A DNA stretch of 52,199 nucleotides, counting the filler, from Catajapyx aquilonaris (Eukaryota), in assembly GCA_000934665.2 (NCBI GenBank). It is 2 parts of 2 records of this genome, joined end to end, with 100 filler letters (N's around TTAATTAATTAA, not from the genome) between each part and the next. Parts side by side here need not be neighbours in the genome. Positions count along the whole stretch, not along the records: positions 1 to 26,049 come from JYFJ02005260.1; 1 more part is not named here. One strand, written 5' to 3'. The position numbers and the translations under genes were made by a program. Positions 18,894-24,522 of the stretch are shown here, piece after piece. Below the pieces are notes generated by a model, which had not been told where the DNA came from, ran no database searches, and was given only the letters and a program-made list of their open reading frames with translations. Position 1 is the stretch's first letter, and each line of letters begins with the position of its first letter.

Positions 18894-21800
18894 TCATTGG
18901 AAATATGCTTCCTTAGGGATCTTCCCTTCCCGGTTGAGTTCAGAGAAGGCTAATTCCGCTCTGTTCAAATCCCACTGGTGGTCTTCCAGACACTTCCTGG
19001 ACCAAGGGAACTTCATTCGGGACATGTTTGAAAGTGAGAGGATCATCTTGTATTTCGTAGTGGAATCAGTCTCATTAGATGGGGATGCCATTTCTGGCAG
19101 GGAAGCCACGACTACTGATTTGACAAATGCCTCTGCGGGAATCTTCCCTTCCGTCTGGAGTGAAAAGAAGCTTAATCCAGCTCTGTTGTAATCCCATAGG
19201 TGATCTTCCAGGCATTTGAGTGACCAGTCTGCATTCATTCCTGATTGCCTGGAAAATGATTCGATCATCTGTTGTTTGAATCTAGTTGCATCATCGGCTG
19301 GCCTACCAGCTGGAGATGCCACATCTCCGATTCTTTCACCTGCAACATAATTATTAAAAGTGAAATCAAATATGATGTACTTCAGCCACAGATTTCACAT
19401 CATTAACTTATTGTAACGGTGAGAGAGAGTGGGGGTTTGAGGCAGGGTATGATTGTTGAGACTCTGCAATGTTTCCAAAGTTAAAACAGCCATTGGAGCT
19501 CAAATATTGAAATGTGGTAGATTTCTAAACGTACTTTTTGTACCAATGATATGCAATGTCCATTACTGAGTTGGCTATCACTGACTAAGACTGACTGACA
19601 GAAAGCGACGAAGTTGTCAAGTGTAACATCCGACTTGAAGGGTTTTCATGTTTGCAACAGGATTGTGCAATTAATTACCAAATTCATTAACAGTACAGTA
19701 TATGCAATGACAGTATATCAATATACACCTTTGAAAATTGGGTGCCACCTACCATTTCATAGAAACTGCAATTAAATTTACCGTACTGCACATTGCAATT
19801 GCAGTCTGGGGGCCATTAAAAACTTCTTCAGATAGATGATTTAAAACACACACATTAACGAGTTCTCTATCCCATTTTTGCAATTCTAGCTTTTCTAGCT
19901 TTTTCCATTCCCACTATCAGACACTGTTTCATAAAACTGCACGATGTGTTTAGTACGGTATGTGTATAGTACGGGAGATCGAGGTATTGGTTGTAACACT
20001 TTTTAGGATATGGATTTTTAAATTCAGTTACATATGCATTTAGGCAAAGGTTTATGGCATGGTGGAAATAAGGCAACATTCCCAAGAACATTCCTCTTTG
20101 TAAAATTAACATTATAAAACCTTAAGATTAAAAATTGATAGATTTATAAAGATTTCTCCAAGGCAAGGCAGAGTGTTACAACCGACCCCACCATAGGGGC
20201 GGTTGTAACAGAGGCCAGGGTCGATTGCAACACTACCGGTATGCATTAAGGCAGTGCTTCCCAATTTCTTTCGTTGGCGACCCCAAAAAATCGTCTCGTG
20301 AAATTTGCGACCCCCTAGATCTGCAAATTTCGATCCTCCAACATGAAAAGACAGGTAAACAGTGAAATGACCTTACCTTATGGTCATGATTTTCAAGAAA
20401 GATAGCATTGTCACCTGTTTCCGTCCCCTCTGAGTTCGGGATCTCAGAATAGGAAGCCATGCTCGACGAGTACGACCTCCAGTAGGGAAGGTCAGGTGTA
20501 ACACAAAAGATTCTGGGTTCACTTGAGGTCAGATATATTATCACACCAAGAATGACATTACATAAAGAGGGGTAGATGGTATAGGCATGGTTCCGGAAGG
20601 TACGGTGATCGAGCGGTACGTTTGTAGAGAGGAAAAGGGAGCGACCAAAAGATTGGCGATAATGTTACCAACCTCTGGCCTCGAGGTGTGTTTCGTGGTT
20701 ACATATATATGGTGTCAGGACAGGTGCATAATGGGTAGGGAGTGAGAATACATCACATGTCGATTCAGCACTCAAAATATACTATGTTGAATAGAGATAG
20801 TCAGCCGCGGTACAACCGTAACGGGAATGCAAGTTGACCTTGAGGGTAGGTGAATTTCGAAGGTCACAGCATCATTTTGTGAAAATAATTTGTTACCCTC
20901 CCTCGCGACCCAAATATTATTTTCGAGACCCCAAATTGAGTCGCGACCCACACTTTGGGAAGCACTGTACTTTAGGGGGAAATGTAATATGGAAGAACAG
21001 TTTACACCCACTCATCTTCTCGACAATATTGTCTTATAGCCTACTTGATCCACCTAGATTACTTTTTATCTCTCGATACGCTGGAACTTATTCAACAGAT
21101 GAATATTAAGCTTACAAGAAAATGGATTTTTAATTCATAAAAATTTTCGACAAACTGGTTATAGGAGGCTTTATTGCACAAAATAATAACTATTTCTACC
21201 CTCAATATCCTGTGAAATATATGTAGCTGTAACATCTGTACACAGACTTGACCATCCCCTCATGGTTTTACCATGTTACAACTGACTGCAAGGAAGCTGT
21301 TACAACCGTCCCAATTGTGTGTTGTCTTGTAGATATGCTTACTACTTGTTATCTGTGCACATGATTTGGTCATCCATACCATATCAGTGCGACCCGGTGC
21401 GACCCCACTAAAGGAACCTTTCTCGTGATTCCAAGGGCAATTCAAGGGGACCTCTACTACCCCCATAATCACTTGATTACAGTCACTCACAAAAGTTGGC
21501 CCAACACACCTTGATTTTTTTTTGCTTATATACGTGTATATAAGAACAAACAACAAAAAAGGAGTAGTCTATAAGTTGTGCCCGGTTTAGAGGTCAGTTT
21601 TAGTTTCAGGGTCTTCTGAACGTATTTATTATTGACGATGATACAACCGTATACCGTGTTACAATCGTCCCCGATCTCCCTTAAACGTGTAGTAAAAGAG
21701 GCAGTCTGCAGATTACTTACCTTGTAAATACCCTTTCATCGGAACAATGCTAAATGGCAGAAGTGTCAAAGCCAGATAACTGGTATAATTAGTCACCTCA

Positions 21801-24522
21801 TTCCAACTAAGGCAGAAGACTGGGGGAAACATCACACTCATTATATCACCAAAAGTAAATTATCACTGAACCAGTGACGCATACACAGTGAGAAATAAAT
21901 AATATGAAAGCTTGACATCCTTTAACATTCCAATTGCTTTGATGGATCGTGGTTTGCCTTCTGTGTGCCCATAATGGCCAACAGGCAACCTATAGCAAAT
22001 CGTCATTGATGGCTAATATCAATCTTGTCACTTTCGACTTGTGCACATAAGAAACTCAGTGCTAGAAAACCACTAAGAAAACTCTGACTCACCTGTTTGT
22101 ACAAACGGTACAGGGCTCGGGTTGGGCGTAGGGTCAGGTGTCTCAGGGTCACACTTAATTTCCATGACATGAGGAGGCGTGAGATCGACTCCATCTAGCC
22201 AAAAGAGACTAGGAAACATCTTTCGCACAACGTTGACATACACAGTCTTGTTCTCGAACAGCTTGCACATCGGATTATTGTCGAGCCTCAACTCTAACAG
22301 GGGGAGGGAGGAGACGGCATCCAGTTTCTGCAGGTCTGCCAGTTGATTGTCGGCCAGGATCAGGATCCTGAGATTGGGGGCCTTGGTGGTGAGCTGGCTA
22401 AAGAGGTCCAAGTTGGAGAGTGCATTTGCAGAGAGGTCCAAAGCCTTGGTTTGTGGAAAGCCCTCTCCTATGGTCTGGAGGACATGTGCTCCCACATTTG
22501 GATGGGTCAATGGTACATATGTGTCATGGAGCTCAGCATCACGATGGAAACTTTTCATATCCAAATAATGGGTCTCAGGATTGTACCTATAGTTGGAATG
22601 GAGTAGCAGAAAAGTTCAGCCTTGTAAATTTCAGAGCATACTTGATCTATAAAATTGGTTTTAAAATAAAACTTATCACAAGTAATAATTCAAGCATGTG
22701 CATTCACAACATTTACAGGTAGAATATATTCAATTAGTTGTAGCTTAAAGGGACACTCCACTCAAAATGCAAGTTGGACTCTAAAAATCGGGCAAGAAAT
22801 CCTGATTCCGAGTGTATAAGCAGTTTTTCTGAGAGACGAACGGTAAGGCCAGGGCGAGCCGTCAAAGTTAGGCAATTCGAATCTGCCGCAAAACAGCAGC
22901 GCCTCCCCCGGGACTGGGCAGAAATTGGGATATTCCTGCGCCAACTTGATCCACGCCATGGTCCGCGCCATCTTTGGTCCGTCCCACAGGTTTATCCCGC
23001 CACCTCTTGACCCGACCCGACTTTCAGAACTAAATCACTTTCGCCTAGTGCCCAGTGGCGGCGCTCACGGCGGACTGGGCTGGCGGGGCAGCTCATTAGC
23101 AGACGACGCAAATTCTGAGTCTTTAACGCCTCGTCCTGGCTTTTCTGTTCCGCGTAGAAAAAAACCGATTGCAACTTCGGAATCAGGATTTTTTTGCCCG
23201 ATTTTTAGAGCCCAACTTGCATTTTGAGTGGAGTGCCCCTTTAAGATTTAATATCACCTGTGAGTCATCACATTCTTGATCCTCTCTTGGAGTTCCAACG
23301 TTAGCAAGATGTTTGGTGGTGGGGATGGCCTTACACTCAAGTTCACCCTATTTCTAAATCCGACAGGGATACTCGGAATGTTGAGCTTGATCTCATTTGC
23401 AGCTACAGAAGAATCTAGGTAGAAAACCGCGTTTGAGCCCTCCCACGAGAACCCCACTGGATGCAGGGACAGGCACATGGCAGCTTGCAGAGAATTAAGC
23501 AGTTTGTACATCTCTTGACCCGTCGCTTTATGGATGGTGACTTTGTGCCACACCTGAAATAGAAAGATGACAACTGACAATGTAGAAGAAGAGAAGAAAG
23601 AATAGGGAGGGGAAATAATCTTGAGCATTGGCAGCATAGGCTGAACCAGTCAGAGTATAGACCAGTGGTTCCCAACCGCGGGGTGCCACGGATATTATAG
23701 CATATAGAGGTGCCACGAAACGAATCGATATCATGTAGTTTCCCGCCGTTACGGCCAGCCAAAATGAAATCAGAAATCGAGGGTGTTTTAATTTTACAGG
23801 ATATAAAAATAAGTGTAATAATACTACTTTAGATCTACGATTTATTATTTGATTAGGTTCTCCTGCATCACTGACTAAGTCTTTCGTAGAGAAATGATAT
23901 AAGGCTTTTTGTTTAATTCAGTTACTTAATTTGCATCACATGGCTACTCCACGTGGATGACCAGCCATTATTCAGATCTTCATCATCCCAAGGGATCCAC
24001 TTTGGTACACTCAAGTCCTCGGAATTATCTCAATTTTTCATCCAGTTGAATGACAAACAAGCACTGGATTGACTTGTACTAATTAAAGAGTTACCAAATG
24101 ATAAAGCTTCACAGCAAAATAATACAGACCTGCATTCGTCCGTTGGCATTTCTTGGCAGTAGGGGCATCCTTCCTCCCCTCCTCCCTCTCCCGTCTCGAC
24201 AGTCTCTCCATTGGGTGTTTCCCCACCTGCTTGACCCTGCTCCAGCCCAATCAGCATTGTCCTCAGTCTCATCAGGGATCCCCACTCTGGATGTTGCACG
24301 GTACACGTACACGGGGGCTTCGTATCTTGGACGAAATCTCTCACCTCCATTGTCCCTGCTGGGAACAGTTTCTCCTTCCTTCCTCCTCCAGCTCATTTTC
24401 CTGCCATCATGATCATCATCCCACCGGCCGTTCTGTTGGTTGAAGTCATTGAGGTGCACTTCTCTCCCTATGCCTCCATCGAACACCTGCTGGTCCTCCT
24501 CCTTGCGTGGGTAATATGGCAT
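18894..24522 (-). CDS. Nuclear RNA export factor (NXF1/TAP family) paralog, ~542 aa, RRM-LRR-UBA-UBA; exons 24522-24130, 23553-23258, 22586-22093, 19339-18894
   Basis: Arg/Gly-rich N-terminus; RRM-like VWHKVTI; LRR LDLSANAL..KAPNLRIL..LRLDNNPMC..FPSLFWLDG; two TAP-C repeats (SGMNADWSLKCLEDHLWDY..GKIPAEAF and SRMKFPWSRKCLEDHQWDL..GKIPKEAY). All three introns GT-AG with matching phases 0, 2, 1. Further 5' exons possible. Confidence 0.85.
19973..21680. mobile_element. Decayed pogo/Tigger-like TIR element in NXF intron
   Basis: Left GGGAGATCGAGG..GTTGTAACAC and right GTGTTACAATCGTCCCCGATCTCCC; internal GTTACAACCG repeats near 20175 and 21299. Confidence 0.5.
20252..20967. mobile_element. hAT (Charlie-like) non-autonomous element
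   Basis: 13-bp TIR CAGTGCTTCCCAA / TTGGGAAGCACTG and subterminal GCGACCC repeats; no clean TSD. Confidence 0.65.
22749..23240. mobile_element. Kolobok-like MITE in NXF intron
   Basis: TTAA TSD (22745-22748, 23241-23244); ~60-bp TIRs beginning AGGG(A/G)CACTCCACTCAAAATGCAAGTTGG. Confidence 0.8.

Follow-up and report, generated by a model that had tools for sequence, protein, structure and literature searches.

Can an RNA export receptor of the NXF family do without its NTF2-like domain (NTF2L), and so without the partner protein NXT1/p15? NXF1 is thought to need NXT1/p15 for one of its two pore-binding sites, and whether p15 has a role beyond the building of that site has been debated since 2002 from engineered proteins. 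The question is raised by a gene of Catajapyx aquilonaris (GCA_000934665.2), located on the minus strand at positions 24522-18894 of the 52,199-nucleotide (nt) stretch of DNA analyzed here (the window), in the part that comes from JYFJ02005260.1 (positions 1-26,049). Judged by its domains, the gene belongs to the NXF family but departs from it in one defining feature: the Tap-type RRM, the NXF LRR domain and the C-terminal TAP-C/UBA are all found, the NTF2-like domain is not, and the UBA is present twice. It is the natural counterpart of an engineered receptor with two UBA domains (2xUBA), a layout previously known from a laboratory construct only.

The splice model, derived from the sequence, comprises four exons separated by GT..AG introns with matching phases (exon start phases 0, 0, 2, and 1). 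Exon 1 (24522-24130, with the ATG at 24522-24520) encodes a 131-codon Arg/Gly-rich N-terminal region, for which no Pfam family was found at E<=10 and which shows only a weak tblastn similarity to NXF N-termini (E 5.4). Exon 2 (23553-23258) encodes the Tap-type RNA-binding (RRM-like) domain, exon 3 (22586-22093) the complete NXF LRR domain and a Pro-rich linker, and exon 4 (19339-18894) both TAP-C/UBA copies, ending with the TGA stop at 18896-18894. The donors are, in order, CAG/GTCTGT, CAG/GTGATA, and CAG/GTGAGT (the slash marks the exon border), the acceptors TTTCAG/G, CTATAG/G, and TTGCAG/G, and the coding sequence (CDS) of 1,629 nt, or 542 codons, has no internal stop. A first-pass annotation of the locus had joined the phase-1 donor at the end of exon 3 (22093) to a phase-1 acceptor at 19339, and this junction is borne out by the splice model. 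Read without splicing, the frame of exon 3 meets a stop 7 codons beyond the donor (open reading frame 22073..22615), while the frame of exon 4 opens no earlier than 19394; since these flanking frames close so quickly, the junctions have little room to move. Two further features agree with a coding gene: the GC content at third codon positions (GC3) is 0.547 in the CDS vs. 0.38-0.46 in the introns, and an AATAAA polyadenylation-type hexamer, read from the sequence only, is found 125 nt past the stop (18763-18768, minus strand).

The domain assignments are based on profile matches. In exon 2, Tap-RNA_bind (PF09162) is matched over profile positions 1-79 of 80 with E 6.7e-10 and 39.2 bits (cut-off 24), and the same exon matches states 94-192 of a full-length NXF profile (E 9.4e-13). 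LRR_NXF1-5 (PF24048) is matched in exon 3 over profile positions 9-142 of 142 (E 6.8e-28, 97.5 bits, cut-off 30.5), together with states 191-348 of the full-length profile (E 1.3e-45). TAP_C (PF03943) is matched in exon 4 with E 2.9e-39 in two stretches, both on the minus strand: copy 1, at 19119-19277, scores 75.8 bits singly (profile 1-49), and copy 2, at 18897-19055, which is the more diverged of the two and is followed by the TGA stop, scores 64.2 bits (profile 2-49; cut-off 21.3 for both). Five single TAP_C domains scanned over their full length score 67.5-81.9 bits (78.7 for P0009), so that the two copies lie inside this range or slightly under it. The motifs W..KCLED..WD and GKIP.EA are kept in both copies, as had been noted at first pass; the spacing of 231 nt given there applies only to the 5' edges of the repeat units, the cores being 222 nt apart (19279 vs. 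19057).

As for the missing domain, four independent searches agree that NTF2L coding sequence is absent from the window, for this assembly. The place where it would be encoded is occupied by intron 3 (19340-22092, minus strand), of 2,753 nt and devoid of N. Stop-to-stop frames of at least 20 amino acids number 104 on the two strands of this intron; the 47 on the gene strand were scanned with Pfam, and 0/47 match NTF2 (PF02136) or NXF_NTF2 (PF22602) at E<=10, four of them giving weak and unrelated matches. A tblastn search with 68 proteins of at least 480 residues, taken from the TAP-C searches and almost all NXF, returned strong matches at the RRM, LRR, and TAP-C exons only (best E 2.7e-10, 2.6e-30, and 4.2e-24, respectively); in intron 3 the best E was 1.7, with no alignment to an NTF2L region. 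A custom NTF2L profile, built from 65 full-length relatives (480-800 residues), was run unfiltered on the whole window, cut into 3,203 six-frame fragments; the lowest E was 3.5, and the top 30 included no fragment of intron 3. Finally, the full-length NXF profile (604 states) was matched at states 94-192, at 191-348, and twice at ~536-602, and states 349-535 were unmatched anywhere in the window. Both the architecture claimed in the first-pass annotation (RRM-LRR, no NTF2L, two TAP-C domains) and its statement that the intron holds no NTF2-like coding signal are upheld, the former by the Pfam and profile searches, the latter by hidden Markov model (on gene-strand frames in the case of Pfam), tblastn and profile searches.

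A few weak similarities were considered and set aside. The segment 20037-19972 matches the LRR end of 7 related tblastn queries (E 1.7-8.6) and was taken as chance. Weak NTF2L/TAP-C-like tblastn matches on the minus strand at ~25.6, 33.1-33.8, and 36.7 kb (E 0.7-10) were rejected as remnants of a second NXF gene, because their overlaps are inconsistent and none of them appears in the full-length profile search. A short plus-strand frame at 45497-45571 resembles the TAP-C core, to which the full-length NXF profile gives E 0.47 and 14 related tblastn queries give E 0.17-9; it has no Pfam TAP_C match at E<=10, lies inside the region of an FCHO-like gene and is probably a chance similarity.

It could be argued that the gene model is incomplete, the NTF2L exons having been lost to a collapsed or mis-joined assembly or to a deletion haplotype, or the product being changed by small additional exons in intron 3. 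This would be favored by the runs of N that lie 1.5 kb upstream of the gene and by the reliance on a single assembly. However, there is no N within 18894-24522 (the N runs of the window are found at 652 and within 26050-26149), the donor and acceptor flanking intron 3 are strong and matched in phase, and no NTF2L signal is seen anywhere in 52 kb, so that this explanation is considered very unlikely.

How did the second UBA arise? The two halves of exon 4 align with each other as DNA (19326-19101 vs. 19095-18881), with 147 of the 215 aligned nt identical, and blastn on the repeat core gives E 1.3e-11. Copy 1 ends in ...AFVK exactly at the human TAP C-terminus, ...AFMK (match to 1go5_A, E 1.8e-15), and it is followed by a TCA (Ser) codon at 19116-19118 (minus strand), which aligns with the TGA stop of the downstream unit and is probably a former stop. 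Furthermore, the alignment of the units runs 13 nt past the stop of copy 2; this stretch is short, with 15 matches in 18 positions and a single gap of 2 nt by hand count, and is supportive but not conclusive. From these alignments, the simplest history is that ~225-231 nt at the end of the gene, with the stop and the first part of the 3' untranslated region (UTR), were duplicated in tandem at the DNA level. The upstream stop then mutated to a sense (Ser) codon, and the old UTR and the flank became the linker between the two domains (19056-19115, minus strand), which derives in part from the former 3' UTR and the 5' flank of the unit and is predicted to be disordered. A quick tree was calculated from 173 TAP-C domains (16 rows of the near-duplicate cluster members P0154-P0156, P0159, and P0161 being left out), with end branches of 0.54 for copy 2 and 0.19 for copy 1; on a 48-row subset, forcing the copies together led to a tree that surpassed the free search by 7.5 log-likelihood units and was not rejected by the approximately unbiased test (p-AU 0.68).

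Since their separation, the copies have not diverged at random. They differ at 53 of 159 nt (106/159 identical) yet share 30 of 53 residues, and the copy-vs-copy nonsynonymous and synonymous distances (dN/dS) are 0.36/0.90 with NG86 and 0.33/0.67 with LWL85. When the 53 differences were placed randomly, keeping the observed number of transitions, in 20,000 simulation runs, the identical residues numbered 20.4±2.3, a single run of the 20,000 reaching the 30 observed, and only 9.6% of the simulated copies were free of stops. From the comparison of observed and simulated values it follows that the differences avoid the conserved residues of the family. The conservation between the copies is non-random, and there are signs that the doubled UBA was maintained by selection.

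The next point is whether both domains may still bind the phenylalanine-glycine (FG) repeats of nucleoporins. An AlphaFold model of the two-UBA region, built with a 23-row alignment, has a predicted local distance difference test (pLDDT) above 90 in both copies (93-95 per 10-residue block in copy 1, 91-97 in copy 2), and means of 58 and 50 in the linker (residues 71-80 and 81-90, respectively), where residues 77-86 fall below 50. With the whole two-domain model as query, so that the match of each copy is not separated, the top Foldseek matches were 1oai_A (the Tap UBA-FxFG complex; TM 0.87 on target), 1go5, and the Mex67 UBA 4wp2; in the ESM Atlas, the best score (0.82) was to unrelated bacterial YccJ clusters and lies below the level that counts. 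W594 and D595, which we assume to matter for FG binding, are kept in both copies. By contrast with human NXF1, the UBA of Drosophila Nxf2 is described as unable to bind FG, with a bulky Leu at the position of human A602 and its pocket shut by a salt bridge between K829 and E814 (sections of 10.1101/608273 on this domain). In ungapped alignments, copy 1 has Ser and copy 2 has Ala at human position 602, and the position of the pocket-closing Lys of Nxf2 (606) is Leu in both copies, like in human TAP. The two features by which an open FxFG pocket is recognized following the same sections, namely a small residue at 602 and no closing salt bridge, are therefore found in both copies. Both UBA copies look NXF1-type at the pocket positions checked, and FG binding is predicted on this basis.

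These residues bear on another explanation, in which the gene is a neofunctionalized NXF whose UBA pair does not serve transport but docks on the pore or on a partner as a regulator, which might compete with NXF1 for FG sites, retain RNA or bind a helix of a protein other than a nucleoporin, in the way that Drosophila Nxf2 binds Panoramix. NXF variants have in fact been co-opted repeatedly, as reported for Nxf2 and Nxf3 in the piRNA pathway in the relevant parts of 10.1101/609693 and PMC6719614; in addition, copy 2 is the faster-evolving one in the quick tree, the window is rich in transposons, and TAP_C arrays are present on unrelated proteins. Nevertheless, residues 602 and 606 are NXF1-type and not Nxf2-type in both copies, the UBA is far nearer to human Tap than to Drosophila Nxf2 (copy 2 matches 1oai_A with E 3.6e-10 vs. 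E 0.23 for the dNxf2 UBA), and the gene has one RRM-LRR unit, vs. the doubled unit of Nxf2. A non-transport variant is accordingly regarded as quite unlikely, and an Nxf2/Nxf3-like paralog, which the first-pass annotation had offered as an alternative, is not favored by the UBA residues.

What function could such a protein have? According to the discussion of export domains in PMC4488659, NTF2L and UBA each hold one FG site, both of which are needed for export, and the integrity of NTF2L depends on p15. The same source states that Tap bearing a pair of NTF2L or of UBA domains retains export, at an efficiency below that of wild-type Tap, and in the account of PMC4330393 a 2xUBA Tap derivative (Braun, Herold, Rode & Izaurralde 2002, MCB 22:5405, cited there) shows a decrease of ~50% in the export of the constitutive transport element (CTE). 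The engineered 2xUBA TAP to which the first-pass annotation had referred as exporting RNA without p15 does exist, as cited in both PMC4330393 and PMC4488659. By analogy with this construct, the Catajapyx gene may encode a natural NXT1-independent export receptor with two FG-binding UBA domains, a reading to which we give even chances.

In this mechanism, the N-terminal tail, the Tap RRM and the LRR would bind cargo or adaptors, and, since NTF2L is absent, pairing with NXT1/p15 through the canonical interface would be impossible. The two UBA domains, connected by a flexible linker of ~20 residues, would provide one FG-nucleoporin pocket each, and the two pockets would fulfill the two-site rule, which in NXF1 is met by NTF2L:p15 and the UBA. 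With two FG-nucleoporin sites supplied by the UBA pair, docking at the pore, and probably the carriage of RNA through it, would become independent of NXT1. Efficiency would probably be below the canonical one, and the RNA contacts would be altered, because RNA is also bound by NTF2L (as stated in PMC4330393). Most likely, by analogy with other NXF variants, the protein would act in a specialized, e.g., tissue-restricted, pathway rather than in bulk export. The proposal that the locus is a natural version of the engineered design thus holds for its architecture and its precedent, and the UBA pair shows signs of selection and NXF1-type pocket residues; the export itself stays at the level of a prediction.

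Several observations speak against this reading and have to be weighed. With regard to the origin and the maintenance of the pair, the two copies are not sisters in the quick tree, in which most forks are unresolved; their differences are distributed over the codon positions as 16, 15, and 22 of 53, with no clear third-position skew (hand-calculated chi-square ~1.6); a dN/dS of 0.4-0.5 on 53 codons indicates mild constraint only; and the repeat unit shows the same degree of similarity in its flanks and in its core. With regard to function, copy 2 is altered in the conserved QSGMN stretch, where it reads MSRMK, the judgement on FG binding rests on few alignment positions, and 2xUBA Tap exports worse than the wild type in the accounts given by PMC4330393 and PMC4488659. 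With regard to history, the selection signal concerns the UBA pair and not the timing of the NTF2L loss, which could be recent, and the gene may have decayed since. Lastly, neither an orthologue nor any other protein of matching architecture is found among the best 150 of 257 matches in 1.84 billion representatives, and in word-based searches against longer proteins exon 4 led to three canonical firefly-type NXF1 and the LRR exon to none.

A less favorable explanation is that of a dying or silent partial duplicate: a paralog that already had a doubled UBA would have lost the NTF2L exons by a deletion in the present intron 3, perhaps mediated by transposons, and would now be untranscribed or non-functional but not old enough for visible damage. 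Inverted-repeat elements crowd the intron precisely where the domain is missing. An outer inverted pair (19970-19984 / 21669-21683) encloses an inner one (20177-20211 / 21297-21331), these nested elements spanning ~19970-21683, and a piece of 110 nt recurs as an 83% identical copy at 7604-7712. The first-pass description of intron 3 as mostly terminal inverted repeat (TIR) transposons (19973-21680) is partly supported by the nested pairs and by the one repeated piece. In addition to the lack of an orthologue in the searches just mentioned (the best 150 of 257 matches and the two word-based searches), the bit scores are somewhat lower than in one canonical NXF (RRM 39.2 vs. 42.4, LRR 97.5 vs. 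129.4), and the selection signal, limited to the UBA pair, may predate the loss of NTF2L. On the other hand, neither a stop nor a frameshift interrupts the 542 codons, each of the six splice sites has the canonical form, the phases on both sides of the deletion agree (a 1-in-3 chance if unselected), GC3 exceeds the intron values, and there is a poly(A) hexamer. Moreover, no NTF2L remnant is detectable, and an old or clean loss fits better than ongoing decay. A silent duplicate is for these reasons judged rather unlikely.

Repeats are a general feature of this region. Most of intron 2 is filled by a miniature inverted-repeat transposable element (MITE)-like element (22744-23245) that starts ~12 nt past the donor and whose arms of 125 nt, 23121-23245 and 22744-22867, match in inverse orientation with 80.8% identity (E 8e-27). 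The neighborhood of the NXF gene is rich in transposons, with an IS1595/ISXO2-like DDE transposase frame at 8442-8984 (minus strand); a 567-codon reverse-transcriptase frame (4028-5728, plus strand) and C2H2 zinc-finger frames (2939-3343 and 13775-14665, both on the minus strand) are also found. Upstream of the NXF gene, ~1.5 kb from its start codon, lie two 44-base N runs (26050-26093 and 26106-26149), adjoined by a 168-codon minus-strand frame (25545-26048) with no Pfam family. Further along the window, an intronless frame of 325 codons (30552-31526, minus strand) encodes the RNase P subunit Rpp40 (PF08584, E 5.6e-75), its nearest word-based matches being two vertebrate proteins with 32-34% identity. 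Exons of an FCHO/muniscin-like endocytic adaptor occupy 41480-48731 on the plus strand (FCH at 41480-41968; muHD at 47231-47824 and 48237-48731), and a 174-codon frame (50539-51060, plus strand) has a sub-threshold scorpion-toxin-like Pfam match (E 7.6e-4, 20.1 bits vs. a cut-off of 21.5).

A natural NXF with two UBA domains and no NTF2L would represent an evolutionary experiment on the p15 question, telling whether a pathway of RNA export, or of docking at the pore, can operate in an organism free of NXT1 and of the roles of NTF2L in RNA binding and dimerization. A gene with two UBA domains would also provide a simple handle on the two-site rule, as one UBA can be mutated at a time. Furthermore, the gene adds a clear case of C-terminal domain doubling, in which a tandem duplication spanned the stop codon and the stop was then lost.

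How widespread is TAP-C without NTF2L? The NTF2L profile is matched by 124 of the 166 proteins collected. Of the 42 without a match, nine have at least 200 residues, and all but one of these nine contain between two and six TAP_C domains. They include EFX90129.1 of Daphnia pulex, which combines six TAP_C with AAA_11/AAA_12 (SF1-helicase-like) domains, KAK5127428.1 of Meristemomyces frigidus with four, P0004 and three members of its cluster with four, and the fungal-like P0037 and P0083 with two each, P0037 having in addition a sub-threshold RRM_9 match (E 0.012). The arrays of P0162, P0016, P0004, P0037, and P0083 range from 2 to 6 copies with no NTF2L, and P0005 has two TAP_C domains and no NTF2L as well. 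The NXF RRM-LRR front is found in none of these TAP_C-array proteins. In the domain tree the repeats of an array group within each protein, which indicates that the arrays arose independently, several times; TAP_C without NTF2L tends to occur in multiples, in a sample biased by the two-copy query. It is tempting to go one step further and to consider the Catajapyx gene as a natural exporter freed from NXT1/p15 by UBA doubling, and tandem TAP-C arrays as a recurrent, independently evolved, NTF2L-free FG-docking module for proteins or ribonucleoproteins; this broader view is tentative and somewhat unlikely as a whole.

Metagenome locus scans with alignment A1 and P0005 as queries returned no confirmed locus. 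The same architecture was not found in the literature, with supplements outside the scope of the search, and the NXF phylogeny table of 10.1101/609693 might list such variants. According to its methods, the NXF survey in 10.1101/609693 was seeded with residues 372-531 of NP_524660.1, which we take to correspond to the NTF2L region; in that case, NXF members without NTF2L would be missed by it, and, if the present reading is true, NTF2L-free TAP-C proteins would be invisible to any NXF survey seeded in this way.

Among the known systems, canonical NXF1/TAP/Mex67 (RRM-LRR-NTF2L-UBA, with NXT1/p15/Mtr2) shares Tap-RNA_bind, LRR_NXF1-5 and TAP_C with the Catajapyx gene, and copy 1 ends like human TAP; however, the canonical proteins combine a single UBA with NTF2L, the region of which is filled by at least 100 residues in 65/65 of the relatives of 480-800 residues used for the profile, whereas the Catajapyx gene has no NTF2L and a doubled UBA. 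The product sNxf1, translated from an mRNA of NXF1 in which an intron is retained (PMC5170612), is also derived from NXF1 without the full C-terminal transport module, and retention of intron 3 in Catajapyx would stop translation 7 codons past the donor and give an RRM-LRR-only product resembling it. Unlike the Catajapyx protein, sNxf1 is without the UBA pair, and it is described there as a cofactor of Nxf1.

The NXF family has been diversified by several independent radiations (as presented in 10.1101/609693). Drosophila Nxf2 and Nxf3 and the mammalian NXF variants are likewise lineage-specific NXF paralogs with altered transport modules. In the sources cited here Nxf2 and Nxf3 keep NTF2L and bind Nxt1, whereas the Catajapyx gene lost NTF2L; the UBA of Nxf2, with its closed FG pocket, binds Panoramix, whereas both Catajapyx UBA domains look NXF1-like. 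The combination that characterizes an Nxf2-type silencing variant, namely a doubled RRM-LRR, an Nxt1-bound NTF2L and a UBA with closed pocket, is not seen in Catajapyx.

The closest parallel is the engineered 2xUBA TAP. As far as it is described in the papers citing it, it shares with the Catajapyx gene the cargo-binding N-terminal half and, behind it, a pair of UBA/TAP-C domains in place of the NTF2L and UBA, and it follows the same logic, by which two FG-nucleoporin sites are enough and p15 is not needed. The difference is that the former is a laboratory construct, while the latter is a natural gene, in which the UBA was apparently doubled by a tandem duplication of the 3' end and for which export is predicted.

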